Below, piece by piece: positions 41,037-59,254 of a stretch of 64,000 nucleotides of DNA; the first letter of the stretch is position 1; each line of letters starts with the position of its first letter. The stretch comes from an uncultured Planctomycetia bacterium (lineage in GTDB: Bacteria > Planctomycetota > MHYJ01 > WSZJ01 > CAZYRM01). The DNA lies in the NCBI GenBank assembly GCA_964649705.1, contig CAZYRM010000005.1, positions 1,480-65,479 on the forward strand, read 5' to 3'. Under the pieces are notes generated by a model. It did not search any database, was not told the DNA's origin, and saw only the letters and a list, made by a program, of their open reading frames with translations. The translations under genes and the position numbers were made by a program.

Positions 41037-44000
41037 TTGAACCACGCCGTGATCCACTTCGGCTGCCCGGCCTGCGGTAAGCCGTGCCGCGTCCCGGACG
41101 AGGCGGCCGGACGCACGGGGAAGTGCCCCTCGTGCGGGAGGCTCATCCAGGTCCCCCTCCCCGCCGCCCCGATCGTCCCGCCTCCCCCCGCGGCCAGGCC
41201 CGTCCCCGCCGCGGCTCCGCCCGTCGATGAGGCCCTCCTCGCCAAGGTCCGCGCGGCCTCTCGCACGTGGAAGGACCGCCTCGCCGACCGGACGCGGCGC
41301 AACCGCCTGCTCTACTTCCGCCCCACCCTCCGCACGACTCTCAAGGTCCTTCCGCCGATCGACGACCTCTTCGATCGCCTCCTCGACGGCGCGCGCGTCC
41401 CGCTGGAACAGCTCCCCACGGAGCCCGCCGACGACCAGGCCCTCCTCGCGATGAAGACCCTCCGCGCGCGGTCGCGCGAGTTCGAGGAGGAGCGCGGCGT
41501 GAACCCCCTCTTCGCCGTGTTCGGCTTCCTGGAGTGGACCACGTCGCTCCACCCCGACGTGCCGTGCAGCACGCCGATCATCCTCGTCCCCGTGCGGATC
41601 GGTACGGGAGGCAGACGGAAGTTCGTGCTCGAGGGGACCGACGACCCGTTCCGCCTGAACCCCCTCCTCGAGCAGCAGCTCCGTGAGGACGTCGGCGTCT
41701 CGATCGATCTGCCCGACCTCGAGGAGGAGACCGAGATCGAGGCCGAGCCCGACCCGTCCGCCCCGACCGCGACACCGCCCGCCCCTCCCCCGTCGAACCT
41801 CGCGCGCCTCCTCGAGGCGGTCGAGGCGAAGCTCCCGAAGGACCGAGGCTGGTCGATCCGGAGAGAGGCCTGCCTCGGGCTCCTCGCCTACCAGAAGATG
41901 GTCATCGTGAGGGACGTCGAGGCGCACGAGCGCGAGATCGCCGCGAACCCGATCCTCGCGGGGCTCGTCGGGGACCTGCGGGCCTTCCGCACGAGCCAGG
42001 AGGCCATCCCCGCCGTCCGCCCGGAGGAGATCGACGCCGTCCCGCCGGACCGGGTCTACCAGGTCCTCGACGCCGACTCCAGCCAGCAGCAGTGCGTGGA
42101 GATGGCGAAGCGCGGGGCGAGCTTCGTCATCCAGGGGCCGCCGGGGACGGGGAAGAGCCAGACGATCGCGAACGTCATCGCGGAGGCGGTCGGAGCGGGG
42201 AAGAAGGTGCTCTTCGTCAGCGAGAAGCGCGCCGCGCTCGAGGTCGTCTTCAACCGCCTGAAGGGCCGCGGGCTCGAGCACCTCTGTCTCGACCTCCACG
42301 CCGCGCGCGCCGACCGCCAGCAGGTCTACGCGCGCTTCCGCGAGACGCTCGACGAGGTCCGCACGGCCCGCCCGGTCGACGGGAAGGAGACCTTCCGGCG
42401 GCTGGAGGAGGAGCGCCGCGCGCTGAACGGGTACGCCGCGGCCCTGGCGAAGAAGCGCCCCCCTCTCGGATCGAGCCTGTACGAGACGTACGGCCGCGTC
42501 CTGGCGAACGCCGGCCTGCCCGACCTCAGGTTCCGCGTCGCCGACGTCGGGACGTGGACGCCCGAGCGGATCGAGAAGGGCGAGCGCCTCCTGGAGTCGC
42601 TCCGCGTCCTGAGGGAGCGCCTCGACGCCGCGAGGGACTCACTGTTCCTCCGGACGCCGTGGGCCCAGGACCGCGCGCCCGAGCGGGCGCGAGAGACGAT
42701 CGGCGCGATGCGGGACGCGATCGAGGACGCCCTCGCCTCCGACGCCCGCGCGCGCCTCGGCCTGCCCGCGGACGAGACCCGCGCGGGCTTCGACGCGCTC
42801 GTCCTCCTCCTCACCCACCTGTGCCAGGGAGGAACGGACCTGCCCTCCGAGTGGATGAGCGAGCTGCCTTCCAAGCTGCGCTCGGAATTCGAGTCGTTCG
42901 GCGCGCGGGTCCAGACGTACCGCGTCGACGAGCGGAGGCTGTTCGATCGGTTCAAGCCCTCGGTGCTCGACCTGGACCTCGATACGATCGTCCCGCGCTT
43001 CCAGGCGTGGGCCGCGGCGTGGTGGAGGCCCGTCCTGCCGCTCTCGAAGGCGTATCGGAGCGCGCGGGAGGGCGTGCTGGCCCACGCGCAGAAGGACCGG
43101 TCGCCCGGGCTCGTGGAGCTCGCGACGGACCTCGCCCTGGCGAAGCGCGTGCGCGACGGGAGGCGCGCCCTGGCGGGGAAGTCGGCCGCGGGGAGTTTCG
43201 CGCAGTGGTACGCGGACCCGTGGTCCCCTCTCGAGCCGATGTCGAGCGCCGTCGAGTGGTACGCCCTCGTCGTGCAGGCCCTCGATCCGGCCGGCGCCGT
43301 GCACAAGCCTCCCGCGGTCCGGGACCTCCTCACGGGCCGGGCCCAGCGCGATGCCTGGAAGGGGCCCGCGGAGGCGCTGCGCGACGCGCGCACGCGCATC
43401 TGCGCCGGCGATAACCTCCTGCTGTCGATCCTGCCGGCGGGCGCGCTGGCCAGCGCGCCCGGACTCCGGGACGAGGCGGCGGTCGCCGCACGCGCGGAGG
43501 GCGAGCTGCCGGTCCTCGCCGACGTCCTGGAGGAGCGCGCCGTCGCGCGGGAGCTCTCCACGCTCGGTCTCCGCGACCTCGCCGCGGAGGTGGTGCGCCG
43601 CGCGGTCCCCGGCGCGCAGTGGACCGCGTGCCTGCGCCAGGGCGTCGATCGCACGCTTGTCGAGGGGGCGCTGGCGAACGAGCCGGAGCTCCGCGGCTTC
43701 GACCCGCACCTGCACCTGAAGCGGATCGAGGCCTTCCAGAAGGAGGACGTCGAGCAGCTCGACCTCGCCGTCCTTCGCGTGAGACGGGAGCACGCCGAGC
43801 GGGCCACGAAGGTCATGAACGCCTTCCCCGAGGAGGAGCGGACGCTCAAGGCGCAGATCCACCGCAAGCGCGGAGGGCTCCACGTCCGCCAGCTCCTCGC
43901 GGCCGCGCCAAACGTCCTGCTCTCGCTCCGTCCCTGCTGGATGATGTCGCCGCTCTCGGTGACGCAGTTCGTCGACCTGGAGGCCGTGCGGTTCGACTGC

Positions 44001-45623
44001 ATCGTCTTCGACGAGGCCTCCCAACTCCTCCCCGAGGACGTCGTCCCCGCGCTCCTCAGGGCGGACCAGGCGATCGTCGCGGGTGACAGCCGCCAGCTCC
44101 CCCCGACGCCGTTCTTCCGCCACGTCGGCGAGGAGGAGGACGACACGGACGAGCCGACCCCGGTCGCCGGGTACGAGAGCATCCTCGAGCAGGTCTCGAC
44201 GTTCCTCCCCTCGTGCTGGCTGTCGTGGCACTACCGGTCCCGCGACGAGAGCCTGATCGCCTTCTCGAACCACCACATCTACGAGAAGCGGCTCCTCACC
44301 TTCCCCGACCCGCGGCTGGAGGAGGAGTACGGGATCCAGCACGTCCTCCTGACCGACGCCGTGTACGCCTCGGGGAGCCGCCGTGGGAACCCGCGGGAGG
44401 TCGAGGAGGTGGTCGCGCGGATGCTCGACCACGCGCGAAGGCGGCCCGACGAGTCGCTCGGCGTGATCGCGCTCGGCATCCAGCACCAGCAGGCGATCCA
44501 GGAGCGTCTGGAGGCGGCCCTCGAGCGCGAGGAGAACGCCGACGTCGTGCCGTACTTTGCCGAGGAGGCGAGCGAGCCGGTCTTCGTCAAGAACCTCGAG
44601 TCGGTCCAGGGGGACGAGCGGGACGCGATCGTGCTCTCGGTGGGCTACGGCCCCGACGCGGAGGGGAAGGTCGCGCTCCACTTCGGCCCGCTGAACATGG
44701 AGGGCGGGGAGCGGCGCTTGAACGTCGCCATCACGCGCGGGCGGAAGCGGATGACGCTGGTGACGTCGTTCCCGCCGACAGCCCTAGCGGCCGAGCGTTC
44801 GAGCTCCGCGGGGCTCCGTCTGCTGAGGGAGTACATCGAGTACGCCGCCTCGCGCGGGCGCGTGCTGGGCGGGGCGGCGATGTCGTCGGCGAATCCCCCT
44901 GAGCGCTCGGTCGAGATGGACGTCTACGAGGAGCTGGTCCGCGCCGGGCACGCACCGGTGTGCCGGATGGGGGCGAGCGCGTACCGGATCGACCTGGCGG
45001 TCCCCTACCCCACGAACCCGGGGCTCTACGCGATCGGCGTGGAGTGCGACGGCCCGTCGTACCACGGCAGCCCGACGGCGCGGGACCGCGACCGCCTGCG
45101 CCAGGAGGTCCTGGAGCAGCTCGGCTGGCGCCTCCACCGCGTCTGGTCGACCTCGTGGGTCCGAGACAAGGCGCGAGAGCGCGATCGGCTCCTCGGCGCG
45201 GTGCAGGCCGCGATCGCGGCCCCTCCGCTGGAGGCTTCCACGCCCCCGCCCGCCCCGGCTGCCCCGCCCGCCACCGCCGCCACGACCGCCGCGACCGCCG
45301 CGCCGGGTGCGACGAAGGAGGCTGCCGGGAGCCCCTTGCCCGCCGAAGCGGGCTCGACGACGGCCGCGAAGCCGGGCCAGTCGCCCGCCTTGGGAGGCAC
45401 GCGGATCTTCGGGGAGAAGGGGCCGCCGCTCAAGGGCCGCACGATCGACGACTACTCGATTGCGGACCTCGTCCAGATCGTCCGCTGGGTCGGCCGCGAC
45501 GGGCATCTTCGCACCGACGCGGAGGTCGAAGAGCTGGTCTTCCAGCACCTCCAATTCAAGCGCCGCGGCCCGCGCATCCTCGCGCAGATCCGCCGCGCCG
45601 TCGAGTGGTCGAAGTCGCGGTGA
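41037..45623 (+). CDS. DUF4011 / SF1 (Upf1-like AAA_11/AAA_12) helicase / DUF559 endonuclease-like / DUF3320 multidomain protein with N-terminal zinc ribbon
   Basis: CPACGK..CPSCGR ribbon. Walker A GPPGTGKSQT, IVFDEASQ, motif VI NVAITRGRKR. C-terminal Vsr-like YRIDLAV...IGVECDG block. TTG start per the track; a GTG at 41049 is an alternative. Confidence 0.85.
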   Translation: MNHAVIHFGCPACGKPCRVPDEAAGRTGKCPSCGRLIQVPLPAAPIVPPPPAARPVPAAAPPVDEALLAKVRAASRTWKDRLADRTRRNRLLYFRPTLRTTLKVLPPIDDLFDRLLDGARVPLEQLPTEPADDQALLAMKTLRARSREFEEERGVNPLFAVFGFLEWTTSLHPDVPCSTPIILVPVRIGTGGRRKFVLEGTDDPFRLNPLLEQQLREDVGVSIDLPDLEEETEIEAEPDPSAPTATPPAPPPSNLARLLEAVEAKLPKDRGWSIRREACLGLLAYQKMVIVRDVEAHEREIAANPILAGLVGDLRAFRTSQEAIPAVRPEEIDAVPPDRVYQVLDADSSQQQCVEMAKRGASFVIQGPPGTGKSQTIANVIAEAVGAGKKVLFVSEKRAALEVVFNRLKGRGLEHLCLDLHAARADRQQVYARFRETLDEVRTARPVDGKETFRRLEEERRALNGYAAALAKKRPPLGSSLYETYGRVLANAGLPDLRFRVADVGTWTPERIEKGERLLESLRVLRERLDAARDSLFLRTPWAQDRAPERARETIGAMRDAIEDALASDARARLGLPADETRAGFDALVLLLTHLCQGGTDLPSEWMSELPSKLRSEFESFGARVQTYRVDERRLFDRFKPSVLDLDLDTIVPRFQAWAAAWWRPVLPLSKAYRSAREGVLAHAQKDRSPGLVELATDLALAKRVRDGRRALAGKSAAGSFAQWYADPWSPLEPMSSAVEWYALVVQALDPAGAVHKPPAVRDLLTGRAQRDAWKGPAEALRDARTRICAGDNLLLSILPAGALASAPGLRDEAAVAARAEGELPVLADVLEERAVARELSTLGLRDLAAEVVRRAVPGAQWTACLRQGVDRTLVEGALANEPELRGFDPHLHLKRIEAFQKEDVEQLDLAVLRVRREHAERATKVMNAFPEEERTLKAQIHRKRGGLHVRQLLAAAPNVLLSLRPCWMMSPLSVTQFVDLEAVRFDCIVFDEASQLLPEDVVPALLRADQAIVAGDSRQLPPTPFFRHVGEEEDDTDEPTPVAGYESILEQVSTFLPSCWLSWHYRSRDESLIAFSNHHIYEKRLLTFPDPRLEEEYGIQHVLLTDAVYASGSRRGNPREVEEVVARMLDHARRRPDESLGVIALGIQHQQAIQERLEAALEREENADVVPYFAEEASEPVFVKNLESVQGDERDAIVLSVGYGPDAEGKVALHFGPLNMEGGERRLNVAITRGRKRMTLVTSFPPTALAAERSSSAGLRLLREYIEYAASRGRVLGGAAMSSANPPERSVEMDVYEELVRAGHAPVCRMGASAYRIDLAVPYPTNPGLYAIGVECDGPSYHGSPTARDRDRLRQEVLEQLGWRLHRVWSTSWVRDKARERDRLLGAVQAAIAAPPLEASTPPPAPAAPPATAATTAATAAPGATKEAAGSPLPAEAGSTTAAKPGQSPALGGTRIFGEKGPPLKGRTIDDYSIADLVQIVRWVGRDGHLRTDAEVEELVFQHLQFKRRGPRILAQIRRAVEWSKSR
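45560..45623 (+). repeat. Left copy of a perfect 64-bp direct repeat (3' end of the helicase gene, including its stop)
   Basis: gcgccgcggcccgcgcatcctcgcgcagatccgccgcgccgtcgagtggtcgaagtcgcggtga is identical at 59443..59506. Confidence 0.85.
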
Positions 45624-45981
45624 CGAGGCGGTCGCGACCTGTCGGTTCGCACTGCTTGCCTGCGGTCGCCCTTCGCACCGTCCGTGACCCGCCTCAACCC
45701 CCGGCCCCGCGCGGGATCACGGTCTTCCAGGCCCTCGATCCACACATCGACCAGGACTTGTTGAGCCCAGATGAACCTGCTACGATCTTGCTGTACAGGT
45801 TCGCTGCCAGTCTTGCACGCAGGCGCGGGTGACCCTCCAGAGCCCCCAATTCCCAGTGGCGTCGCGCTCTGTGTCGGGACTCGGTCCCAGGGGACGGTGC
45901 GTTTGCTCGGAAGGGTTGCTGACCTGATTCCCGGCGGATGAGGCCACGCTTCATGCTGGCGCTGGCCGAGGCGGCACGCAA

Positions 45982-46989
45982 ATGACGGCCGACACGCTCA
46001 AACGTATTGTTCGCGCAATCGCGAGCGGCTCACAGCTCGACCTTGTCCGCCTTGCGCGGCAACTCGTTGAGCGTGAGCGCCGAATGGGTCACGCCAGGCT
46101 CGCATCGGAACTCGACAGCCTCCTAGTTCGAGTTCCGCGTGAAGGAAACCGTGGGACCCCGTCAATCGACTCAGCATTCGGGCTCAAGGAACTTCCCCTG
46201 AGCCGCCGCTACGGTGAACTCCTCGCCACGATCCTCCCGCGCGAGACGCTTGAACACCACATGGTACTCCCCGCCGAGACCGAGACCCGGTTCGCACGCA
46301 TCGAGTGCGAGTACGCGGCCCGCGAGCGACTCGGGGTCTACGGCCTCCGCCCGCGGAAGACGATCCTCCTGTACGGTCCGCCTGGTTGCGGGAAGTCCCT
46401 TGGGGCGAAACGGCTCGCGTGGAACACAGGTCTGCCGCTGATCAAGGTTCAGTTCGACACTTTGATCTCCTCCTACTTCGGCGAGTCAGCGGCCAACTTG
46501 CGTGCAGTATTCAGCAGCGCAAAGGCGCGCCCCTGCGTTCTGCTGCTGGATGAATGCGACTTCATCGCACGCTCGCGAACCAACACGAAGGACATCGGGG
46601 AGGTGTCACGTATCGTCAATGCTCTCCTCCAGTTCATGGAGGAATATGATGCACCGGGCCTGCTGGTCGCTACGACCAATGTAGAGTCGTCTCTGGACCC
46701 GGCCCTGTTCCGCCGATTTGACGATGTATTCCTGATCCCGCCACCGGGCCCTGCAGAAGTCGAGAAGCTCCTCCGCATGACCCTGTCCGCGGTTGAACTC
46801 GCGCACACGCTGGAGTGGCCGCCGATTGTGGGACAGTTATCCGGCGCGTCGGCAGCGATGGTCGTGAAGGTGGCACAGGACGCGGCCAAGGCGGCCGTTC
46901 TGACTGGCGGCAAGCTCGTCACAGAATCGCACGTTCAGCAGGCGATTGCGGAACTTCGGAGGGGAGAAAACCCCGCGAAGGGGGATTGA
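45982..46989 (+). CDS. AAA+ ATPase (classic AAA family)
   Basis: Walker A LLYGPPGCGKS, Walker B VLLLDECD, and sensor/arginine-finger regions. Confidence 0.8.
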   Translation: MTADTLKRIVRAIASGSQLDLVRLARQLVERERRMGHARLASELDSLLVRVPREGNRGTPSIDSAFGLKELPLSRRYGELLATILPRETLEHHMVLPAETETRFARIECEYAARERLGVYGLRPRKTILLYGPPGCGKSLGAKRLAWNTGLPLIKVQFDTLISSYFGESAANLRAVFSSAKARPCVLLLDECDFIARSRTNTKDIGEVSRIVNALLQFMEEYDAPGLLVATTNVESSLDPALFRRFDDVFLIPPPGPAEVEKLLRMTLSAVELAHTLEWPPIVGQLSGASAAMVVKVAQDAAKAAVLTGGKLVTESHVQQAIAELRRGENPAKGD

Positions 46990-46992
46990 GGA

Positions 46993-49668
46993 ATGCCGGC
47001 GCCGCACAACTTCGAGCATCTTCCCTTGCTGCTGCGATTTCGGGGCCCAGCGCGGCTCCCTCGCGGCGGCAAGTCCTCCCCGCAGACCCTGGCAAACAAG
47101 AAGGCGCGCCAAGCGCACAGCACGTGCCTTCACCAGGCCGCACAGTCACTCACATCGACCTGGCAGGAGAGGCAACTGCAACGGGGCACCCAGGGCCTCC
47201 CCGTCATTCCTCACGGGGTCTCGATCCTGCTCCAGGTCGATCCCCACCTTGAACTCGACGCGCTCCGCGAGAAGTTCGATTTTGAGATCGTGGCTGAGCA
47301 GGAAGATGGCTACGTGATCGTAGCGGCCGAGGATATCGAACTCGGGCCGTTCGTCAAGATGGTGGGAGAATTCGCCGTCGAGATTCATGGCTCCGCGACG
47401 ATTGCCCAGGTTCACAAGCTCTTCGAGGACCCCAACCAGATCGACCGCTTGCGGCGGATCCTCTCCGAGCGACTCTTCGATCAGTGGCCCTCGATCGACG
47501 ACGCAACAATCCACGTGGTCGATATCGGGATCGCATGCACCGGGACCCAGGAGATTCCAGCACGCCCCAAGCGGGGAAAGCGCGACACTGACGCCGATTG
47601 GGCAATCAAGGAGAGTGCCTGGTCCCAGGAGCGGGTCGCCGCCTACACGGCTTGGGACAAGGTCAAGGCTGACCGCGAGGAGGAGATGACTCGTCTCGCC
47701 GAAGCCTACCGTGCCGAGATGCTCAGCGTGATCGACGGGGGGCCATATAACGCCGCCGTTCTCCCCGACAGCTTTACGGTCAGGTTGAGAATCGTCGGCA
47801 AGGGGCTTAAGGATCTCGTCCTCAACTACCCCTACATCTTCGAGGTAGTCGAGCCGGAGGACTTCGCCGCCCCGCATGACGAAGCACGAGCCGTGGGCAA
47901 GCCCGTCCCGGCGGCAAGGCCGACGCCGCCCGCAGCCGATGCGCCCGCCGTATGCGTGATCGACAGCGGCATTCAAGAGGGCCATACCCTCCTCCAGCCC
48001 GCGGTGGATCAGGCAACGTCGCATTGCTTCCTTCCCGGAAGGAACTCCGACGAGGTGGGCGACTTTTTCCGGCCCGCGGGACACGGAACCCGCGTCGCGG
48101 GCGCGGTTCTGTACGGCGAGAACGTGCCACGGGGCGGGGCGCCGCAACTCCCGTTCTGGATCCAGAACGCTCGTGTCCTCGACGAGGGAAACCGAATGCC
48201 GGAGGAGCTGTTTCCTCCCGCGGCCGTGCGCGCAGCCGTGGAACGATTCCATCGCGGTCCCCGACAGACTCGCATCTTCAACCATTCTATCAACGCCGAG
48301 GGCTACTGCCGCACACGCCACATGTCGTCCTGGGCGGCGGAGATCGACGCACTATGCGCCGCCTATGACGTCCTAATCGTGCAAAGTGCCGGAAACCTCG
48401 GCGCCTCGGGAACAAACCCGTTTATCGGATTGCGGGAGCACCTTGCTGCGGGTCGCGAGTACCCGGGGTACCTTTACGAGAACTCCTGCCGGATCGCCAA
48501 CCCGGCCCAGAGTCTACAAGCATTGACAGTCGGTTCCGTTGCCTACGGAGCACTTGAGACAGGGGGGTGGCGCACGTTTGCGTCCGAACCCGGCCACCCG
48601 TCCGCGTTTTCTCGCTCGGGTTTCGGCATCTGGGACGTGATCAAGCCTGAAGTGGTCGAGTACGGCGGCGACGCCACGCGCGATGGCAACGCCCCGCCCG
48701 GGATTCAGGTCGGAGGAGCAATCCGAGACGCGTGCCCCGAACTGGTCCGGTCGACCATGTTCGCGCCAGGGCCTGCCTTCGATCGCGATCAGTGCGGCAC
48801 ATCGTTTGCTACCCCGAAGGTCAGCCGCATAGCGGCCCAGTTGCAGTCGATTCTCCCGAATGAACCAGCGCTCCTTTACCGCGCGCTGATCGTGCAGTCT
48901 GCCCGCTGGCCCATCTGGGCCGACGCGCTGCTCGTCGAGCTTCGCAGTCTTGACCCTCGGCGTGACGAGGTGAGGCGTCAAGCGTTGTTGGAGCAGGTCT
49001 CGCAGGTTGTTCGATGTCTCGGGTACGGAGTTCCGGATCCTCTTCGCGCCAGTACGAACGGCGAGCACCGCACCACGCTGATCACAAGTGGAGACAGCTC
49101 GATACGGGCCCTCGGGTGTCACATCTATCAGGTCCCCGTGCCGGCCGCACTGCGCCAGCAGGCCGATGAGTTCGACATCAGGATTGAGGTGACCCTATCC
49201 TATGTCGCGCAGCCCCGTCGGACCCGCCGAAAACTGCGGCGATATCTGTCCACTTGGCTGGACTGGACTACCAGCAAGCTCGACGAGCCCTTGGACGTTT
49301 TCCGTAGGCGCGCCCTGAAGGGGGACGACAACGACGCCGACAACTCGCCTGGATCACCCATTCCTTGGGCGCTTCACGCGAAGGCCTCTGACGGCTTGAT
49401 TCGCGGAACCAAGCGCAGTTCCGGCACGGTGCAAAAGGACTGGGCTGTCGTGAAGTCCAACACACTCCCCGAGAATTTCTGCATCGCCGTAATGGGCCAC
49501 AAGGGATGGAGCCACGACCCCGATTCAACCGCCCGCTACACTCTGGCCGTGACCTTTGAAATCGAGGGAAAGGAGATCGCCATCTACGAGCCGTTGCGGG
49601 CGGCGGTGCAGGAACTACAGGCGACACTCGAAGTCGAGCAGGAGACGGAAGTCGACATCAGCGAGTGA
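46993..49668 (+). CDS. Subtilisin-like serine peptidase (S8) with a long N-terminal extension
   Basis: Catalytic triad contexts VCVIDSGI (Asp), GHGTRVAG (His) and GTSFATPKVS (Ser). 3-bp gap after the AAA ATPase gene. Confidence 0.8.
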   Translation: MPAPHNFEHLPLLLRFRGPARLPRGGKSSPQTLANKKARQAHSTCLHQAAQSLTSTWQERQLQRGTQGLPVIPHGVSILLQVDPHLELDALREKFDFEIVAEQEDGYVIVAAEDIELGPFVKMVGEFAVEIHGSATIAQVHKLFEDPNQIDRLRRILSERLFDQWPSIDDATIHVVDIGIACTGTQEIPARPKRGKRDTDADWAIKESAWSQERVAAYTAWDKVKADREEEMTRLAEAYRAEMLSVIDGGPYNAAVLPDSFTVRLRIVGKGLKDLVLNYPYIFEVVEPEDFAAPHDEARAVGKPVPAARPTPPAADAPAVCVIDSGIQEGHTLLQPAVDQATSHCFLPGRNSDEVGDFFRPAGHGTRVAGAVLYGENVPRGGAPQLPFWIQNARVLDEGNRMPEELFPPAAVRAAVERFHRGPRQTRIFNHSINAEGYCRTRHMSSWAAEIDALCAAYDVLIVQSAGNLGASGTNPFIGLREHLAAGREYPGYLYENSCRIANPAQSLQALTVGSVAYGALETGGWRTFASEPGHPSAFSRSGFGIWDVIKPEVVEYGGDATRDGNAPPGIQVGGAIRDACPELVRSTMFAPGPAFDRDQCGTSFATPKVSRIAAQLQSILPNEPALLYRALIVQSARWPIWADALLVELRSLDPRRDEVRRQALLEQVSQVVRCLGYGVPDPLRASTNGEHRTTLITSGDSSIRALGCHIYQVPVPAALRQQADEFDIRIEVTLSYVAQPRRTRRKLRRYLSTWLDWTTSKLDEPLDVFRRRALKGDDNDADNSPGSPIPWALHAKASDGLIRGTKRSSGTVQKDWAVVKSNTLPENFCIAVMGHKGWSHDPDSTARYTLAVTFEIEGKEIAIYEPLRAAVQELQATLEVEQETEVDISE

Positions 49669-49696
49669 ACACGGCACGTCCAGAGGGCAGAGATCA

Positions 49697-51205
49697 ATGA
49701 CCGACCAGGGCCCGTCGCAGCCCCCCATCACGCTCTCGGAGCTCGAGTCGCACCTCGGGGAGGCCGCCAATATTCTCCGCGGCAGTCCCGTCGATCGAAC
49801 CGACTGGAAGAGCTACATCCTCCCGCTCCTCTTCTTCAAGCGCATCTGCGACGTGTGGGACGAGGAGCACCAGGCGATGATCGTCGAGTACGGCGAGGAC
49901 TTCGCCGACGAGCACCGATTCCAGGTAGGCGAGCGCTGCCACTGGAACGTCGTCCGCGAGGCCGCGGCGAACGTCGGGACCGCGCTCCAAAGGGCGATGC
50001 GCGGCATCGAGGCGGCCAACCAGAAGCACCTCTACGGCGTGTTCGGCGACGCGCAGTGGACCAACAAGGAGCGGCTGCCCGACGAGCTGCTCAAGGACCT
50101 CGTCGAGCACTTCTCCGCCCTGAGTCTGGGGAATCGGCGCGTCGCCAGCGACCTGATGGGCGACGCGTACGAGTTCCTCATCAAGAAGTTCGCCGACGCG
50201 ACCAACAAGAAGGCGGGCGAGTTCTATACCCCGCGCAGCGTCGTCCGCCTGATGATCGACATCCTGGATCCGAAGGCGGGAGAGACCGTCTACGACCCCG
50301 CCTGCGGCACCGGCGGAATGCTCCTCGCAGCCGTGGCGCACGTCCGTGATCGCGGCGGCGACCCGCGCACCTTCTTCGGGCATCTGTACGGCCAGGAGAA
50401 GAACCTCACTACTGCCGCCGTTGCGCGGATGAACCTCTTCCTTCACGGGATCGAGGACTTCGTCATCGAGCGCGGCGACACCCTCCGCAACCCGGTGTTC
50501 ACCGCCCCGGCAACTGGCGGACTCGCGACTTTCGACGTAGTCGTGGCCAACCCGCCGTTCTCGCTCGAGCAGTGGGGCCGCGAGGTCTGGGAGAACGACC
50601 CGTGGGGCCGCGCCTTTGCGGGTCTGCCGACAGACTCGAGCGGCGACTTCGCGTGGGTGCAGCACATGGTGCAGTCGATGGCCGATGGGAGCGGTCGGAT
50701 GGCCGTCGTCCTTCCCCAGGGCGCCCTCTTCCGAGGCGGCGTCGAGGGGGACATCCGTCGACACCTCCTCGAGAAAGACCTGGTGGAGGCCGTCATCGGC
50801 CTCGCGCCCAACCTGTTTTATGGCACTGGGCTCGCGGCGTGCATCCTGGTTCTCCGTCGCAGGAAGGCGGACAAGCGGGCGAAGAAGTTACTCATCGTGG
50901 ATGCCTCGTCCCTCTGCCGCAAGGGACGAGCGCAGACCTTCCTGGAGGCGGAGCACGTCGCGCAGATTGTGAAGTGGACCGAGGCGTTCAAGGACGTGCC
51001 TCACCGCGCGCGGCTCATGACCTTGAAGGAGATCGAGAAGGAGGGGTGGACCCTCAATATCGCCCGCTACGTGTCCTCCCCCGTCGGAGAGGACATCCCA
51101 CCCCTTCGAGAGGCCGTTGCAGCGTTCAAGCAGGCGCTCGGCCGGTGCCGCGAGGCGGAGGATCGCCTTCGCCGCGTCATGAAGGAGGGAGGCTGGCTGT
51201 CGTGA
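49697..51205 (+). CDS. hsdM: Type I restriction-modification methyltransferase subunit (HsdM), copy 1
   Basis: N6-adenine MTase motifs DPACGTGGML and NPPF. 502 aa. Confidence 0.85.
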   Translation: MTDQGPSQPPITLSELESHLGEAANILRGSPVDRTDWKSYILPLLFFKRICDVWDEEHQAMIVEYGEDFADEHRFQVGERCHWNVVREAAANVGTALQRAMRGIEAANQKHLYGVFGDAQWTNKERLPDELLKDLVEHFSALSLGNRRVASDLMGDAYEFLIKKFADATNKKAGEFYTPRSVVRLMIDILDPKAGETVYDPACGTGGMLLAAVAHVRDRGGDPRTFFGHLYGQEKNLTTAAVARMNLFLHGIEDFVIERGDTLRNPVFTAPATGGLATFDVVVANPPFSLEQWGREVWENDPWGRAFAGLPTDSSGDFAWVQHMVQSMADGSGRMAVVLPQGALFRGGVEGDIRRHLLEKDLVEAVIGLAPNLFYGTGLAACILVLRRRKADKRAKKLLIVDASSLCRKGRAQTFLEAEHVAQIVKWTEAFKDVPHRARLMTLKEIEKEGWTLNIARYVSSPVGEDIPPLREAVAAFKQALGRCREAEDRLRRVMKEGGWLS

Positions 51206-52710
51206 GCGGCCGCATCACCCAACAGGAGCTGGAGGGGTACCTCTGGGGCGCCGCCACGCTCCTTCGCGGGCTCGTCGATGCGGGCGACTACAAGCAGTTC
51301 ATCTTCCCGCTCCTCTTCTACAAGCGGCTCTCGGACGTCTGGGACGCGGACTACACGGAGGCGATGGAGGAGGCGGGCGACAGGAAGTACGCGCGGGCCA
51401 CGGCAAACGACCGCTTCGTGATCCCGAACGGCGCGCACTGGAACGAGGTCCGGGGCGTTGCGAAGGACGTAGGGCGCACCCTCCAGGGAGCGATGCGCGC
51501 CGTGGAGGCGGCCAATCCCGATCGCCTGGACGGGATTTTCGGCGACGCGCCCTGGACCCACAAGGAGCGAGTTCCCGATGCGACGCTCAAGAACCTCATC
51601 GAGCACTTCTCGTCGAGGACGTTGTCGCTCGCCGAGGTGCCCGAGGACGAGCTGGGGAACGCCTACGAATTCCTCGTCAAGAAGTTCGCCGACGACAGCG
51701 GCCACACGGCGCAGGAGTTCTACACGAACCGCACCCTCGTTCACCTGATGGTCCGAATGCTGGAGCCGAAGCCGGGCGAGGAGATCTACGACCCCACGTG
51801 TGGCACCGGGGGGATGCTGATCTCGTCGCTCGCCGAGGTGAAGAGGAAGGGGGGCGAGCACCGAACGCTCGGCCTGTTCGGCCAGGAACTGAACCACATG
51901 ACCGCCTCAATCGCGAGGATGAACCTCGTGCTCCACGGGGTCGAGGACTTCCAGATCGAGAGGGGGGACACGCTCGCCGAGCCGCGTTTCGTGGCGAAGG
52001 ACCGCCTGCGTACGTTTGACGTCGTGCTCGCGAATCCCCCGTACTCGATCAAGCAGTGGAACCGTGAGGCGTGGACGAGCGATCCCTGGGGGAGGAACTT
52101 CCTCGGGACGCCGCCGCAGGGGCGGGCCGACTACGCGTTCTTCCAGCACATCCTGAAGAGCCTCGACCCGAAGTCGGGCCGTTGCGCGATCCTGTTCCCC
52201 CACGGCGTCCTCTTCCGTCAGGAGGAGGCCGAGATGCGCAAGAAGCTCGTCGAGGCCGACCTCGTTGAGTGCGTGCTCGGGCTGGGGCCGAACCTCTTCT
52301 ACAACTCGCCGATGGAGGCGTGCGTCGTGGTGTGCCGCGCCGCGAAGCCGAAGGGACGACGCGGCAAGATCCTCTTCATCGACGCGATCAACGAGGTCAG
52401 CCGTGAGCGCGCGCAGAGCTTCCTGCGGGAGGAGCACCAGGAGCGCATCGTCGCTGCGTACCGTGCGTTCAAGGACGAGCCGGGCTTCGCCAGGGTCGCG
52501 ACCCTCGACGATGTCGCAGCCCAGCAGCACAACCTCTCCATCGCGCTGATAGTCAAGCGGCTGGGGACGGATGGAACCACCGAAGGAGCCAGCTCCCTGC
52601 GGCAGGCATGGAACGACTGGGAGAAGTCGGGGAAGGGGTTCTGGCGCGAGATGGATGCACTGGTCGCGACCTTGGACAGCCTAGTCGACCAGGAGGTGGC
52701 CGATGCGTAA
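51202..52710 (+). CDS. hsdM: Type I restriction-modification methyltransferase subunit (HsdM), copy 2 (paralog)
   Basis: DPTCGTGGML and NPPY. GTG start overlapping the upstream stop (GTGA). 502 aa, collinear with copy 1. Confidence 0.8.
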   Translation: MSGRITQQELEGYLWGAATLLRGLVDAGDYKQFIFPLLFYKRLSDVWDADYTEAMEEAGDRKYARATANDRFVIPNGAHWNEVRGVAKDVGRTLQGAMRAVEAANPDRLDGIFGDAPWTHKERVPDATLKNLIEHFSSRTLSLAEVPEDELGNAYEFLVKKFADDSGHTAQEFYTNRTLVHLMVRMLEPKPGEEIYDPTCGTGGMLISSLAEVKRKGGEHRTLGLFGQELNHMTASIARMNLVLHGVEDFQIERGDTLAEPRFVAKDRLRTFDVVLANPPYSIKQWNREAWTSDPWGRNFLGTPPQGRADYAFFQHILKSLDPKSGRCAILFPHGVLFRQEEAEMRKKLVEADLVECVLGLGPNLFYNSPMEACVVVCRAAKPKGRRGKILFIDAINEVSRERAQSFLREEHQERIVAAYRAFKDEPGFARVATLDDVAAQQHNLSIALIVKRLGTDGTTEGASSLRQAWNDWEKSGKGFWREMDALVATLDSLVDQEVADA

Positions 52711-53896
52711 CGCCGCAGTCGCGACGTCCTGGAAGGCCTGGCGCTTCAGCGATATCGCCACACATGTGAACGAGCGGGTCGACAACCCAAGCGAAGCGGG
52801 CGTCGAACGCTACGTCGGGCTCGAGCACCTCGATTCTGACAGCCTACGCATTCGGCGATGGGGAAGTCCCTCGGACGTGGAGGCGACCAAGCTCCTGTTC
52901 AGGAGGGGGGACATCATCTTCGGCCGTCGCCGGGCCTATCAGCGAAAGCTCGCGGTTGCGGACTTCGACGGCATCTGCTCGGCGCACGCGATGGTGCTGC
53001 GCGCCCGGTCAGAGGTGGTGCTGCAGGAGTTCTTGCCCTTCTTCTTGCAGACCGATCTCTTCATGGAACGCGCGCAGGCGATTTCCGTTGGGTCGCTCTC
53101 GCCGACGATCAATTGGAAGACGCTCGCGCGGGAGGAATTCGCGCTGCCGCCGCTGGACGAGCAGCGGCGCTTGGCCGCTGCACTTTTCGCGACCGAGAAC
53201 GCGCTGGAGGCGTTGACGGCCACGGAAGCCTCTGCGGAACGCGCCAGACGGTCGCTGCTCGTGCAGACATTTCGGCCGAGTCGCGGACCCCGCGGTGTCT
53301 TTCCTCCTCACTGGTCAGTGCTCCCCGCCAAGGTGGCGGGCAACGTGCAGCTCGGCCAGCAGCGTCATCCAAAGTACGATAACGGCACGAATGTGCGCCC
53401 ATACCTACGAGTCGCCAACGTCATGGATGGCACCCTGGAGCTCAGGGACGTCTCCCGCATGCACTTTCCACCTAGGGATCTGCACAAGTTCGAGCTTCTG
53501 CCTGGTGACATCCTCCTGAATGAAGGTCAGAGTACGGAACTTGTCGGGCGGAGCGCCATCTACCGGGGGGAGGTGGAAGGGATGTGCTTCCAGAAAACGC
53601 TCTTGCGCTTTCGTTGCGGACAAGACCTAATCCCCGACTTCGCTCATGCCTACTTCCAACACTGCCTCTATGTGGGAGAATTCGCCCGCATCTCCGTGCA
53701 GACGACGTCGATGGCGCATCTGACGGCGGTGAGATTCGAGCAGATGCCCATACCCGTTCCGCCGAAGGAGGATCAGAGGCAAGTCGTGGACCGAATCCAC
53801 TCCCTGAATGATGCCGTTTGCTCCTCTCGGCGGCGAAGGGACTCCGTCCGCGTGCTCAAGGCGAAGCTCATGACAGCCGCGCTGGGGTGGGAATGA
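52703..53896 (+). CDS. hsdS: Type I restriction-modification specificity subunit (HsdS), two TRDs
   Basis: Two target-recognition domains separated by conserved helical spacers. 8-bp overlap with hsdM2. Confidence 0.85.
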   Translation: MRNAAVATSWKAWRFSDIATHVNERVDNPSEAGVERYVGLEHLDSDSLRIRRWGSPSDVEATKLLFRRGDIIFGRRRAYQRKLAVADFDGICSAHAMVLRARSEVVLQEFLPFFLQTDLFMERAQAISVGSLSPTINWKTLAREEFALPPLDEQRRLAAALFATENALEALTATEASAERARRSLLVQTFRPSRGPRGVFPPHWSVLPAKVAGNVQLGQQRHPKYDNGTNVRPYLRVANVMDGTLELRDVSRMHFPPRDLHKFELLPGDILLNEGQSTELVGRSAIYRGEVEGMCFQKTLLRFRCGQDLIPDFAHAYFQHCLYVGEFARISVQTTSMAHLTAVRFEQMPIPVPPKEDQRQVVDRIHSLNDAVCSSRRRRDSVRVLKAKLMTAALGWE

Positions 53897-56859
53897 CATT
53901 CAACGAAGCCAACACCGTCGAGGCCCTCGTCCGCGACTTGCTGTGCGGCGGGATCACACACCACACTGCCGTGGGACCGGGCCTCGCGCGCAAGGGGGGC
54001 AAGATTTCGGGGACCGGGTGGCACTACCTCGCGCCCGAGAATCTCCCGCGCCAGGCGCACGAGGTCTTCGTCGAGCCATTCGTTCGGGAGACGCTCCTCC
54101 GCCTGAACCCCGAGATCGCCGCCAACCCAGATCGCGCCGACGAGGTGCTCTACAAGCTGCGGGCGATCGTCCTCTCGGTGCGAAGCGACGGGCTGATCAA
54201 GGCGAACGAGGAGTTCAGTGCCTGGCTGCGTGGCGATCGATCGATGCCATTCGGTCCGAACCACGAGCACACGACCGTTCGTCTCGTCGACTTCGAAAAC
54301 CTCGAAAACAACCAGTACGTCGTCACCACACAGTACAGCTTCCGCGCGGGGCCGGCCGAACGACGCGCCGACCTCGTGCTCCTCGTCAACGGCTTCCCGC
54401 TGGTCGTCATTGAGGCGAAGACTCCCGTCCGCAAGGCCGTGAGCTGGGTCGACGGCGCGCTCCAGATCCACAATGACTACGAGAAGGACGTCCCCGAGCT
54501 ATTCGTCTGCAACGTCCTCTCGGCCGCCACCGAGGGCAAGGAACTCCGCTACGGCTCGATACGCATGCCGATCGAAATGTGGGGCCCGTGGCGATTGGAG
54601 GAGGTTGCCCCCGCGGGAGGTCTCGGATCCGTGGAACACGCGGTTCGTTCCATGTTCCGACCCGCGGTGCTTCTCGACATCCTCGCGAACTTCAGCCTCT
54701 TCGCCACGGACCCGAAGGGGCGCCGTCTCAAGATCGTCTGCCGCTACCAGCAGTACGAGGGAGCCAACCTCATCGTGCAGCGCGTCCTCGCGGGCCGTCC
54801 ACGTAAGGGGCTCCTCTGGCACTTCCAGGGATCGGGGAAGTCGCTTCTCATGGTCTTCGCCGCCCAGAAGCTCCGCATGCATCCGTCCCTGAAGAACCCC
54901 GCGGTCCTGATCGTCGTGGACCGCATCGACCTCGATACGCAGATCAGCGGGACCTTCCACGCCTCAGATATCCCAAACCTCGTCAAGGCCGAGGCGCGCG
55001 CAGACCTCGAACGGCTCTTGCGGCAAGACATCCGCAAGATCATCATCACGACCATCTTCAAGTTCGGAGAGGCCGAGGGAGTCCTGAATGATCGAACCAA
55101 CATCGTCGCCCTCGTTGACGAGGCCCACCGCACTCAGGAGGGTGACCTGGGCATCAAGATGCGCGCGGCGTTGCCCAACGCCTTCCTCTTCGGCCTGACC
55201 GGGACGCCGATCAACCGGATCGACCGGAACACCTTCTACGCCTTCGGTGCGGAGGAAGACGAGCGCGGCTACATGAGCCGTTACGGCTTCGAGGAGTCGA
55301 TTCGCGATGGCGCCACGCTGCCGCTCCACTTCGAGCCGAGGCTCGTCGAGATCCACATCGACAAGGAGGCCATCGACCAGGCCTACGCCGACCTCACCGG
55401 CGGGCTGTCGGACCTCGACCGGGACAACCTCGCCCGCGCGGCCTCGAAGATGGCCGTGCTGGTCAAGGTACCCGAGCGGATCTCGAATATCTGCGCCGAC
55501 ATCGCACGACATTACCAGGAGGCGGTCGAGCCGAACGGCTTCAAGGCGATGGTCGTCACCTTCGACCGGGAGTGCTGCCTTCTCTACAAGACGGAGCTCG
55601 ACAAGCATCTGCCGCCGGAGGCGAGCGAAATCGTCCTGTCCGCGACCGGGAACGAAGAGCAGTACAAGCCCTACGATCGTGGGCGGGACGAGGAGGGGAG
55701 ACTCCTCGATCGGTTCCGAGATCACCAGGACCCCCTGAAGATCCTGGTCGTGACCGCCAAGCTGCTGACTGGGTTCGACGCGCCGATCCTCCAGGCCATG
55801 TACCTCGACAAGCCGCTCCGCGACCACACACTGTTGCAGGCCATCTGCCGGACCAACCGGGCCTGCAGCGACAAGAAGACCCACGGCCTCATCGTCGACT
55901 ACCTGGGCGTGTTCGACGACGTGGCGAAGGCCCTCGAGTTCGACGAGAAGGGCTTCCGGCAGGTGGTCTCGAACATCACGGCCCTCAAGGACAAGCTCGC
56001 TCCGGCCGTGCAGAAGTGCCTCGCCTACTTCCCCGGTGTCGACCGCGCGCTCGGCGGATACGAGGGGTTGATCGCCGCGCAGCAGTGCCTCCCGAACAAC
56101 GATGTGCGTGACTCGTTCGCGGCCGACTACAGCTACCTCAGCGAACTGTGGGAGGCCCTGTCGCCCGATCCGATCCTCCAGGGCCACAAGACGGACTACC
56201 GCTGGCTGTCGCAGGTGTATGTCTCGGTCCAACCGACGACGGGGACGGGGAGGCTGATCTGGCACACGCTGGGAGCGAAGACCATCGAGCTCATCCACGA
56301 AAACGTGCATGTCGATGCCGTCCGAGACGACCTCGACAGGATTGTGCTCGACGCGAAGATGCTAGAGGCCGTGCTTGGCGCGCCGGACCCGACGCGGAAG
56401 GCGAAGGAGATCGAGATCAAGCTCGGGCGACGGTTGCGGCAGCGCATGGGCGACCCCCGCTACAAGAAGCTCTCGGAGCGGCTGGAGGCGCTCAAGGAGC
56501 GGCATGAGCAGGGCCAGCTCCATAGCGTGCAGTTTCTGAAGGAGCTGCTCGACCTCGCCAGAGAGCTCCTGCAGACGGAGAACGAGACGCCCGCCGAGCA
56601 GGGCGAGGATCGGGGGAAGGCGGCTCTGACGGAGCTGTTCGAGGAGGTACGGACGAAGGACACCCCAGTGATCGTAGAGCGGGTCGTGGCGGACATCGAC
56701 GAGATCGTGCGCCTGGTGCGATTCCCCGGCTGGCAGGACACCAGCGCCGGCGAGCGCGAGGTCAGGAGAGCACTTCGCAGGACGCTCTTGAAGTACAAGC
56801 TGCACCAGGAGGAGGAGCTGTTCGAGAAGGCGTACGGCTACATCCGTCAGTACTACTAG
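53893..56859 (+). CDS. hsdR: Type I restriction enzyme R subunit (HsdR), SF2 helicase/nuclease
   Basis: ATGA overlap with hsdS. N-terminal nuclease region. Helicase motifs: GSGKS (motif I) and DEAH (motif II). Confidence 0.85.
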   Translation: MTFNEANTVEALVRDLLCGGITHHTAVGPGLARKGGKISGTGWHYLAPENLPRQAHEVFVEPFVRETLLRLNPEIAANPDRADEVLYKLRAIVLSVRSDGLIKANEEFSAWLRGDRSMPFGPNHEHTTVRLVDFENLENNQYVVTTQYSFRAGPAERRADLVLLVNGFPLVVIEAKTPVRKAVSWVDGALQIHNDYEKDVPELFVCNVLSAATEGKELRYGSIRMPIEMWGPWRLEEVAPAGGLGSVEHAVRSMFRPAVLLDILANFSLFATDPKGRRLKIVCRYQQYEGANLIVQRVLAGRPRKGLLWHFQGSGKSLLMVFAAQKLRMHPSLKNPAVLIVVDRIDLDTQISGTFHASDIPNLVKAEARADLERLLRQDIRKIIITTIFKFGEAEGVLNDRTNIVALVDEAHRTQEGDLGIKMRAALPNAFLFGLTGTPINRIDRNTFYAFGAEEDERGYMSRYGFEESIRDGATLPLHFEPRLVEIHIDKEAIDQAYADLTGGLSDLDRDNLARAASKMAVLVKVPERISNICADIARHYQEAVEPNGFKAMVVTFDRECCLLYKTELDKHLPPEASEIVLSATGNEEQYKPYDRGRDEEGRLLDRFRDHQDPLKILVVTAKLLTGFDAPILQAMYLDKPLRDHTLLQAICRTNRACSDKKTHGLIVDYLGVFDDVAKALEFDEKGFRQVVSNITALKDKLAPAVQKCLAYFPGVDRALGGYEGLIAAQQCLPNNDVRDSFAADYSYLSELWEALSPDPILQGHKTDYRWLSQVYVSVQPTTGTGRLIWHTLGAKTIELIHENVHVDAVRDDLDRIVLDAKMLEAVLGAPDPTRKAKEIEIKLGRRLRQRMGDPRYKKLSERLEALKERHEQGQLHSVQFLKELLDLARELLQTENETPAEQGEDRGKAALTELFEEVRTKDTPVIVERVVADIDEIVRLVRFPGWQDTSAGEREVRRALRRTLLKYKLHQEEELFEKAYGYIRQYY

Positions 56860-57433
56860 CTCCTTCGCAGTTGCAGGGAAGTGTGGGGAAGTAGAGGTCC
56901 CGGTTCTTGGGGTCTTCTTGGGAGGAGACCGTGATGTAGTGGGGATCGCCGCGCAAGTGGCGCTCGAGGAACTCGTCGGCATCGTGCGAGGTACCCGTGC
57001 GGAGGTCGTCAGGCCATCGCCAGGGGTTCGCATGGTCCTCGCGAGGCGATCACCGTGAGCCTGTCCGGCGATCGAGAGGGCCATCTCACGTTCTCGCGAT
57101 GCAGCCGCGTGTACGTCACGACCCGCACACCAGGCGGTGGCGAGGAACTCGATCGGCGATCTTCAGACGCTTGCGCGATCCCCGCGACGAAGTCGCCACC
57201 ACCTCGTGATGGCCACCTCATGCATTCGTCAGGAAGACGAACGGCCATCGTGGATCTCCATCGAGCCCCTCGCGAGGCACCCGTCGATTCCCCGTGACCT
57301 ATACCCGATCCGCTCGCACGGACCTCGGACTGTATCCGTCAGGACATGGAGAGACCCTCGTCAGGAAGTCGACGCCGACTCGCCAGGCGTCTGCGAGGCG
57401 ATCGCGAGCAAGCCGTAGAGGTCTCGCCACAGT

Positions 57434-57583
57434 CCCGCGAGCAACTCGACGGCGATTCGCCGCATGCCCGCGATGAGCACGTCGGCGACTCGCTGCAAGC
57501 CCGCGAGCAGCTCGTAGGCGACTCGCGACAGACCCGCGAGCAGCTCGTCGGCGATTCGTCAGGAGACCGCGAGGATGGCGGAG
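57434..57583. repeat. Tandem repeat: 33-bp unit x ~4.5 (CCCGCGAGCAGCTCGTCGGCGACTCG-n7)
   Basis: Units at 57434, 57467, 57500 and 57533, then a partial one. Contiguous with no spacers, so not CRISPR-like. It sits inside a ~1.1-kb stretch without credible ORFs. Confidence 0.7.
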
Positions 57584-58023
57584 GGTTGTCGTGAGGGACT
57601 CGTTCGGCCCATGGGCTGGACTCGTGAGGTAGCCGTGGGCCGCTGAGGAGGAAGTCGTGACGTGCTCGGCAGGCCGTCTCAACGAACCCACGAGGGACTC
57701 GCCTGGCACACGTTCGGCACTCGACGGCGAATAGCGGGGTCCTCGCCGGACGGTCGCGACATGCCCTTGAGCAGATCACCATGGGCTCGCATGGGCGTCT
57801 TCCGATCCACCTGCGGCGATCGCGAGGTTGAATTGAGTCGATCGTGAAGTGACTTCATGGCGATCGCCAGCAAATCGTCAACGACATGTCATGTGATCGC
57901 GATGTGATCGTCAGTGATTCATCAGTAGCACTCATGTAGCAATCACAGAACAATCACTGTACATTTGCATCTCATGAATCTACAGTGGATTGTGACGTTC
58001 CACTCTCGCAATGGAGGTGCAGC

Positions 58024-58359
58024 ATGGCCGAGGAGCCCCGTTCGAAGCGCCCCTATCGGAAGGCGATGAAGCGCGGCGTGGTCGTCGACCGCGATGGCGC
58101 AATCCGCTTCCTCAAGGCCTTCGGGTTCGCCGAAACCGACAAGCCCGGCGTCTTCATGCGCCAGGAGCAGCGCAAGACGCACGAGAGGCGCGCGGGCGCG
58201 CGCTACATCCAGGAGCTCGACCTCGAGCAGATCCTGGGTATGCCTGACGCCTGGCGGCGCTTCGTCCGCGACTGGAGCACCCGGCACCCCGACATCGCCA
58301 AGAAGCTCGATGAGGAGATCGAGAAGGAGGAGCGGAACAGGCCCGGACCGGCGAAGTAG
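58024..58359 (+). CDS. Hypothetical small protein (111 aa)
   Basis: ATG with GGAGGTG 5 nt upstream. Preceded by an AT-richer region with direct repeats (atgtgatcg x2). Confidence 0.5.
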   Translation: MAEEPRSKRPYRKAMKRGVVVDRDGAIRFLKAFGFAETDKPGVFMRQEQRKTHERRAGARYIQELDLEQILGMPDAWRRFVRDWSTRHPDIAKKLDEEIEKEERNRPGPAK

Positions 58360-58392
58360 CCCCCCTCTTCCGACCTCGAGAGTCGGGGCCCC

Positions 58393-59249: not shown

Positions 59250-59254
59250 GGCGA

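Follow-up and report, generated by a model that had tools for sequence, protein, structure and literature searches.

The founding IetAS pair, that of plasmid pTiC58, was reportedly described by Yamamoto et al. in 2009, and IetAS as an anti-phage system, also called Gao_Iet, is said to go back to Gao et al. in 2020. In its original description, IetAS was a toxin-antitoxin system that stabilises plasmids, in which a serine protease is the toxin and an ATPase is the antitoxin (PMC13069673). According to the same 2026 paper, the mechanism by which it acts against phage "remains unknown", protease activity is required for defence, and constructs with mutated ietA were not obtainable, which is consistent with active IetA being the antitoxin; the paper also lists ietHAS (Liu-DS4), a helicase-dependent variant that needs the SNF2 helicase IetH (PMC13069673). 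IetAS homologs of B. cereus m1293 and E. coli ECOR52 were tested after Gao et al. 2020, and the B. cereus homolog acts by abortive infection and becomes toxic once the SPbeta gene yosG is expressed (bioRxiv 10.1101/2022.08.27.505566). Related AAA/S8 toxin-antitoxin pairs are S026/S025 (SgiAT) of the Salmonella island SGI1 (PMC5006074) and a Mycoplasma pair, in which deletion of the ATPase antitoxin alone is lethal (PMC8562856, PMC6755753). In this study, a 64,000-nucleotide stretch of DNA from an uncultured Planctomycetia bacterium (GenBank assembly GCA_964649705.1, contig CAZYRM010000005.1, positions 1,480 to 65,479 of the forward strand; hereafter the window) was analyzed around an AAA+ ATPase gene and the subtilisin-like S8 protease gene that follows it. 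In family and functional class this gene pair is very probably an IetAS (Gao_Iet) two-gene toxin-antitoxin and abortive-infection module, that is, a divergent member of an already named system and not a new kind of system.

The pair consists of ietA (45982-46989, plus strand, ATG start, 335 aa), the AAA+ ATPase gene whose product is the antitoxin or regulator in this family, and ietS (46993-49668, plus strand, ATG start, 891 aa), the S8 subtilase gene. In the PADLOC search, IetA matched the model PDLC02196 (1.1e-67, residues 5-326 against profile positions 6-322 of 374), and IetS matched PDLC02198 (9.5e-60, residues 311-874 against profile positions 247-781 of 795), leaving the first 246 positions of this best IetS profile unmatched. 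A sequence search of the PDB with IetS gave no matches. We compared the pair with the founding one on pTiC58 (NC_003065), in which the AAA gene (97873-98859) and the S8 gene (98863-101373) are also 3 bp apart. BLASTP showed 35% identity between the two IetA proteins over the full length (E 1e-55), and 25% identity between the two IetS proteins over residues 307-872, which cover the S8 and C-terminal domains (E 7e-28). Both pairs have the AAA-then-S8 order, and both IetS proteins have an N1 subdomain, an S8 domain and a C-terminal domain in common. They differ in that the window IetS is 891 aa long and the pTiC58 one 836 aa, that residues 133-315 of the former have no detectable counterpart, and that the pTiC58 pair lies on a Ti plasmid whereas the window copy lies on a chromosomal island together with a restriction-modification (RM) system.

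With the anti-phage IetAS (Gao_Iet) the window pair shares both PADLOC models, the two-gene architecture, intact protease and ATPase motifs, and the defence-island context. SGI1 S026/S025 and Mycoplasma mycoides A132/T133 are likewise made of an AAA antitoxin and an S8 toxin on chromosomal islands, but they belong to other clades and hosts and were shown as toxin-antitoxin pairs, not as anti-phage systems. An earlier reading of this DNA by a model, made from the sequence alone and called here the sequence-only reading, had singled out the pair and could not assign it to any named system. It identified the pair correctly, but a name does exist, IetAS (Gao_Iet), with a literature of its own. Its proposal of a tightly coupled defence or abortive-infection module is in line with the family so identified, for which such a role was shown by experiment in homologs, and the housekeeping protease-maturation system that it set up as the contrary outcome was not matched.

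The anatomy of IetA supports this assignment. The Pfam AAA domain (PF00004, 9.8e-31) spans residues 128-253 and contains the motifs that had led the sequence-only reading to call the protein a classic AAA ATPase, namely Walker A (GPPGCGKS, residues 132-139, with K138) and Walker B (VLLLDE, residues 186-191, with D190 and E191). The stretch G132-K138, D190/E191, the sensor-1 residue N233 and the arginine fingers R244/R245 were all invariant in alignment A6. Pore loop 1, likewise conserved, reads Y165-F166-G167 (YFG; FMG in pTiC58 IetA), and such an aromatic-hydrophobic-Gly pore loop is the signature of substrate-threading AAA+ unfoldases. IetA also matched the D2 ring of p97/Cdc48 at 5e-49. Judged by these motifs and matches, IetA is a predicted classical-clade AAA+ ATPase, closest to the p97/Cdc48 D2 ring and PAN.

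The catalytic part of IetS is equally well preserved. The Pfam domain Peptidase_S8 (PF00082, 1.9e-27) was found at residues 317-649, with the motifs DSG (D324), HGT (H364), GN (N468, oxyanion hole) and GTS (S604), which were conserved in close and diverse IetS alignments alike. D324, H364 and N468 were invariant and S604 was at least 90% conserved in a diverse alignment of 67 sequences, so the complete S8 triad reported in the sequence-only reading (D324, H364, S604) is borne out. The S8 catalytic domain as a whole covers residues 317-689 (47941-49059, plus strand), as delimited by Pfam, PADLOC, Foldseek and the four conserved residues. It is followed by a C-terminal beta-sandwich and terminal helix (residues 690-891; 49060-49668, plus strand), with strands at residues 693-857 in the AlphaFold2 (AF2) model, a conserved PRRTRR motif at residues 741-746, and an alignment with the C-terminus of pTiC58 IetS. 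We found no signal peptide or transmembrane segment in IetS (maximum KD19 1.18), and it is therefore predicted to be a cytoplasmic subtilase.

The N-terminal extension, put at about 300 aa in the sequence-only reading, proved to be real, conserved and about 315 aa long, and had no Pfam match even at E<=10. By hhalign, residues 1-132 matched the N-terminal profile of pTiC58-type IetS with a probability of 93.5% (E 2e-7, 128 columns; reversed control 0.2%). Since residues 1-132 are homologous to pTiC58-type IetS and residues 133-315 are not, the extension divides into N1, a subdomain found throughout the family, and N2, a subdomain whose sequence is particular to this clade. N1 (residues 1-132; 46993-47388, plus strand) is common to classic IetS. 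N2 (residues 133-290) together with a Pro/Ala-rich linker (residues 291-316) occupies 47389-47940 on the plus strand, and this clade-specific sequence is possibly propeptide-like. At the 50% identity level the N-terminal region was found in 355 clusters, always at the N-terminus of proteins of about 835-925 aa or of fragments of these, which ties it to the IetS architecture. For some pTiC58-type IetS N-termini, PF27160 is precomputed.

We next give the structural model. A first AF2 model of IetS, built from 56 sequences that were 65-71% identical, was discarded for its predicted local distance difference test (pLDDT) score of 49, and the model used here came from the diverse alignment A3 (67 sequences, 35-71% identity), with a pLDDT of 90 and a predicted TM-score (pTM) of 0.92. 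In this model the N-terminal region forms two beta-alpha-beta-beta-alpha-beta modules, at about residues 76-143 and 173-286, the second of which contains a 39-residue helix, while the Pro/Ala-rich linker (residues ~290-316) was modelled with low confidence (low pLDDT). No internal duplication between the two modules was detected by hhalign. Foldseek against the PDB matched the model to subtilases, with the best E-value of 6e-21 for ProN-Tk-SP (3afg), and the top-ranked matches were pro-forms or enzymes with a C-terminal beta-domain, including KP-43, pro-subtilisin E (3whi), PCSK9 and Kex2/furin. The C-terminal part was best matched by S8 enzymes with C-terminal beta-barrel or P domains (Tk-SP, KP-43, Kex2/furin), and Foldseek against viral structures returned generic subtilases only.

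The window has a GC content of 69.5%, at which long chance open reading frames (ORFs) are common, and genes were picked by GC content at third codon positions (GC3) and by homology. Both ORFs lie exactly where the sequence-only reading had placed them, a 335-aa ATPase and, 3 bp later, an 891-aa protein, on the same strand and in the same frame, with a GAGGA Shine-Dalgarno sequence overlapping the ietA stop codon ahead of ietS. The two genes are translationally coupled. Of 80 related loci, 78 have an IetA homolog directly upstream of IetS and in the same orientation, and the pair is thus not a chance ORF pair of a high-GC genome. Upstream of ietA lies the leader of the inserted element described below (45624-45981, plus strand, 358 bp, non-coding), presumed to be the promoter region. 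In the NCBI record (P0121), IetA is 301 aa long with a later start, omitting 45982-46083. Conservation of the first 34 residues throughout the clade argues for the 335-aa start, and the 301-aa version begins too late.

The clade to which the pair belongs is large. Of the database candidates that were scored, 1784 were related to IetS at E<=1e-5; the 120 closest of these were all about 890 aa long and 65-71% identical, and the IetA relatives likewise showed 70-76% identity. A scan of species-representative genomes found 423 IetS relatives in at least 8 phyla, the best 80 of which were 51-72% identical. The hosts of these 80 were Acidobacteriota, Planctomycetota, Alpha-, Beta- and Gammaproteobacteria, Nitrospirota, Syntrophobacteria, Verrucomicrobiota, Gemmatimonadota, Myxococcota and one actinobacterium. 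So high an identity across phyla indicates that the clade has probably spread horizontally.

Gene pairing, spacing and neighbours were counted in these best 80 IetS loci. In the 2 loci outside the 78 already mentioned, IetS starts about 110 bp or less from the contig end, so that the pairing holds in 78 of 78 informative loci; the gap between the two genes was exactly 3 bp in 45 of 76. A small helix-turn-helix (HTH) gene was present 0-140 bp upstream of ietA in 31 of 78 loci (L009-L087), and these genes fall into four unrelated families (13, 9, 5 and 4 loci), which means that the clade has no constant third gene; regulators seem to have entered this position several times, each time independently. 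By eye alone, three of the four families resemble XRE/HigA-type antitoxins. An exception to strict pairing was seen on plasmid pPL62-2 of Planctomyces sp. SH-PL62 (L002, 8935-11490), where an orphan IetS-like gene, 51% identical, directly follows repA-parA-parB, with no IetA homolog within 9 kb. Its product lacks the first ~60 residues of N1 and keeps the DSG, HGT and GTS motifs, and the gene may be an inactivated toxin. A split ietA on a contig from Hainich groundwater (L005, 4106-5112) was found to be a 10-N scaffold gap, not a frameshift or mutation.

The neighbour survey covered the two nearest genes on each side in about half of the loci, 125 proteins in total. It contained PDC-S28 (6), DinG-like helicases (4), Hachiman, DrmD, AbiEi, TIR-Ago, DRT, type I and type IV RM, Mrr, phage-type integrases (4) and several transposases. 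The homologs are therefore not uniformly outside defence islands, the outcome that would have spoken against the sequence-only reading; their surroundings instead abound in genes for defence and for mobile elements. The gene directly after IetS was recorded in the 61 loci whose downstream sequence reaches 2 kb or more. It was a type I methylase gene in 4 of them (30-36% identity to the window methylase) and a PDC-S28-like gene of about 840 aa in another 4. Both kinds of gene lie on the same strand as IetS and start at most ~35 bp after it or overlap its end. The loci with such a second defence gene were L014, L035, L040 and L077, and L017, L053, L058 and L073. Association of IetAS with a second defence gene is recurrent, by independent pairings. 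A non-random co-localisation with type III RM is known for the ietAS of E. coli (bioRxiv 10.1101/2022.08.21.504612).

In the window, the pair is cargo of an inserted element, as the sequence-only reading had proposed. At 45.6 kb GC content steps down from ~0.72 to ~0.63 and does not recover before ~59 kb, and GC3 was 0.72 for ietA and 0.76 for ietS versus 0.85-0.95 in neighbour genes. The element is bounded by a perfect 64-nt direct repeat, for which 0 such matches are expected by chance and whose identity ends sharply on both sides. The left, attL-like copy (45560-45623, plus strand) forms the last 64 nt of the upstream helicase gene, including its TGA stop, and in the right, attR-like copy (59443-59506, plus strand) the TGA overlaps the ATG of a Ser/Thr kinase gene (TGATG). 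An empty site was found on the metagenome contig L092, where only 8 bp separate the end of a relative of the helicase (86% aa identity) from a relative of the kinase (76%), with nothing inserted, and the repeat sequence is present in a single copy (58/64 nt matching). The same order of IetAS and RM genes was found on independent Hainich groundwater metagenome contigs. Because of the GC drop, the repeats, the empty site and the independent copies, we conclude that 45624-59506 is a 13.9-kb low-GC insertion at the 3' end of the resident helicase gene. The island was present on every contig that has the exact kinase, and the empty site was found only via the helicase relative; an exact search for the att core in Joint Genome Institute (JGI) metagenomes gave 0 matches. 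The element resembles site-specifically integrated genomic islands in its target-duplicating direct repeats and empty site, and differs from them in the integrase, for which see below.

Several points weigh against this account of the pair and its element. The NCBIfam searches returned the agreeing names IteA and IteS, but, measured by the equivalog cut-offs set for the tested E. coli-type proteins, at only 200.1 bits against 510 for IteA and 112.8 bits against 900 for IteS. With scores so far below the equivalog cut-offs, the window pair is best taken as a distant clade of the family, not as an equivalog of E. coli-type IteA/IteS. Residues 133-315 of IetS had no profile similarity to the equivalent region of pTiC58-type IetS (hhalign, 0.1%), and with these residues unmatched, regulation or trigger could differ from those of classic IetS. 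No sigma-70-type promoter was found upstream of ietA by a simple scan, and no HTH regulator gene lies upstream of it in the window (no homolog of the four HTH families). No Pfam recombinase was found in any ORF of 45624-59506, so the element has no recognizable integrase or recombinase. The function of this clade would follow from experiments on homologs, and the restraint of IetS by an unfoldase is something that we infer, how an AAA+ ATPase neutralises a subtilase being unpublished.

By analogy with the homologs, IetS would be toxic alone and neutralised by active IetA, and the pair would confer protease-dependent abortive infection after a phage-protein trigger. IetA would form a hexameric unfoldase and, in the uninfected cell, continuously keep IetS inactive through its aromatic pore loops and ATP. 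It would most likely engage the N-terminal region of IetS, at the N1 subdomain common to all IetS. This specific step, restraint of IetS through unfolding by IetA, is plausible but tentative, and we would give it slightly less than an even chance. Infection would lift the restraint, either by a phage protein that blocks or out-competes IetA or by host shut-off that depletes IetA, and the freed IetS would then cleave essential cytoplasmic proteins and arrest the cell before phage progeny are released. In such a scheme a phage would meet RM first, with IetAS behind it as the suicidal back-up. As a toxin-antitoxin pair, IetAS would also have the property of stabilising the island.

This last property leads to another explanation, in which the pair is a pure addiction module that stabilises the 13.9-kb island by post-segregational killing and has no anti-phage role. 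Stabilisation of a plasmid or island is the founding function of the family (pTiC58 IetAS, SGI1 S026/S025), the inserted element persists although it lacks an integrase, and the IetS-like gene of pPL62-2 stands beside repA-parAB. We nevertheless consider it unlikely that addiction is the whole role, as homologs protect against phage by abortive infection, and the pair is carried together with RM while its homologs are found among defence genes; addiction and defence are also not mutually exclusive. 

The pair could also be read as a two-component ATP-dependent protease of the proteasome or ClpXP kind, in which IetA feeds or activates IetS for regulated or housekeeping proteolysis. The closeness of IetA to Cdc48/PAN-type unfoldases, with the pore loop kept, and the tight translational coupling of the genes would suit such a machine. 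It would, however, demand the opposite of what was seen in homologs, where IetS without IetA is toxic and cells that lose IetA die; an obligate activator would not behave in this way. As monomeric enzymes with an open cleft, subtilases are not chambered proteases, and a housekeeping role does not go well with a patchy distribution by horizontal transfer or with the location on an island. This explanation is very improbable.

Since a helicase-dependent IetAS variant exists and a large helicase-nuclease gene lies 358 bp upstream of ietA on the same strand, we asked about a three-gene, ietHAS-like system. The window pair has the IetA-IetS core of ietHAS, but the helicase is of the superfamily 1 (SF1) DUF4011/MTES_1575 type (Hhe/PDC-S37/ProA-like), unrelated to the SNF2 helicase IetH that ietHAS needs. 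It has host-like GC and lies outside the mobile element, a helicase of this type accompanied IetAS in only 1 of the 80 loci, where it is distant and on the opposite strand, and L092 carries the helicase without IetAS. The helicase is a resident gene, not cargo, and, given its place outside the insertion, its SF1 type and its company with IetAS in only that one locus, it is not an ietH-type third component. We give the three-gene system almost no credence, and the empty site of L092 refutes it. Least of all can the pair be type VII secretion components, EccA (AAA+) and mycosin (S8), a reading that was rejected: the weak NCBIfam matches (EccA 3.5e-6, mycosin 3.6e-6) reach 26 bits against cut-offs of 467 and 279, IetS has neither the signal peptide nor the membrane anchor of a secreted protein, and no other ecc genes are present within the window.

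Within the IetAS assignment, the clade of about 893-aa "long-N" IetS may be mechanistically distinct. The pro-forms of I9 subtilisin zymogens (pro-subtilisin E, Pro-Tk-SP, PCSK9) are the top structural matches of IetS, and as in pro-subtilisins N2 has a beta-alpha-beta-beta-alpha-beta order, ending about 38 residues before the catalytic Asp. In a comparison with the whole model, the query-normalised TM-score was 0.31 for unprocessed pro-subtilisin E versus ~0.24 for mature subtilisins, which is suggestive of a propeptide-like module docked on the predicted catalytic domain. IetS differs from these zymogens in being cytoplasmic and in having no Inhibitor_I9 sequence match in its N-terminal region (Pfam). 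N2 would then be a tethered I9-like inhibitory pro-domain, IetS a cytoplasmic zymogen, and IetA the factor that controls removal or retention of the pro-domain. We regard this as a doubtful possibility, rather unlikely as things stand.

The rest of the element is dominated by a type I RM system (49697-56859, plus strand), recognized by Pfam and PADLOC matches. The sequence-only reading had noted that the pair adjoins such a system, and indeed hsdM starts at 49697, immediately downstream of ietS. The genes, all on the plus strand, are hsdM1 (49697-51205, 502 aa), hsdM2 (51202-52710, 502 aa), hsdS (52703-53896) and hsdR (53893-56859). hsdM1 and hsdM2 are tandem paralogs, 50% identical, before the single hsdS and hsdR, and in the best PADLOC MTase_I model hsdM2 scored 765 bits versus 473 bits for hsdM1. 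Beyond hsdR there is a tandem repeat (57423-57573) with a 33-nt period and about 4 copies (77-78% matches), and a further copy lies at 57719-57746; the surrounding ~1.1 kb of the element contains no convincing gene. These repeats might be iterons or protein-binding sites. No tRNA and no Rfam family was found in the element.

At the right end of the element four small ORFs, all on the plus strand, were recorded, and none of them (58024-59506) had a PADLOC match. The first (58024-58359) is a gene call, and the second (58393-58680) resembles the N-terminus of the kinase (41% identical). The third (58845-59249, 134 aa) carries an Xre/MbcA/ParS antitoxin C-terminal domain (PF09722, 2.6e-5) and is not followed by an intact RES/ParT-type toxin gene; what comes next is the fourth (59273-59506, 77 aa), a fragment resembling the C-terminus of the helicase (43% identical), which runs into the repeat and whose helicase likeness extends beyond the 64 nt. 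The kinase-like ORF thus precedes the helicase-like one in the element. Both may have been left behind when the element integrated earlier, in another host, at this same hotspot.

On either side of the element are the two resident genes. The helicase (41037-45623, plus strand) has 1528 aa with DUF4011, SF1 helicase and MTES_1575 nuclease parts. It matched the PADLOC models PDC-S37 (E=0) and Hhe (7e-144), and reached 1020 bits with NCBIfam ProA, for which the cut-off is 1500. The kinase (59506-63663, 1385 aa) is a Ser/Thr kinase with PEGA, PQQ and FG-GAP beta-propeller domains. The two genes were ancestrally translationally coupled (TGATG) and provided the insertion site of the IetAS/RM element; the helicase-kinase pair is conserved in L092 (6001-11858), and by itself it might constitute a defence system of two genes. 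Elsewhere in the window (29911-34207), two large adjacent genes of 977 aa and 453 aa with a GC3 of 0.94-0.96 had no Pfam or PADLOC match.

For the family, the clade described here adds no new kind of system, but it is a widespread and unusually well conserved one, found in 423 species genomes. The N-terminal region of IetS is modular, with N1 being universal and the candidate handle for IetA, and N2 being replaceable and a candidate sensor or pro-domain. If N2 were indeed a pro-domain, an AAA+-gated zymogen switch would be the immune trigger, and this would be the first mechanistic handle on IetAS. The 13.9-kb element, with IetAS and type I RM side by side, is a natural cassette with clear-cut ends, for which the empty site is known, and it could be cloned as a unit to probe layered defence by RM and abortive infection.

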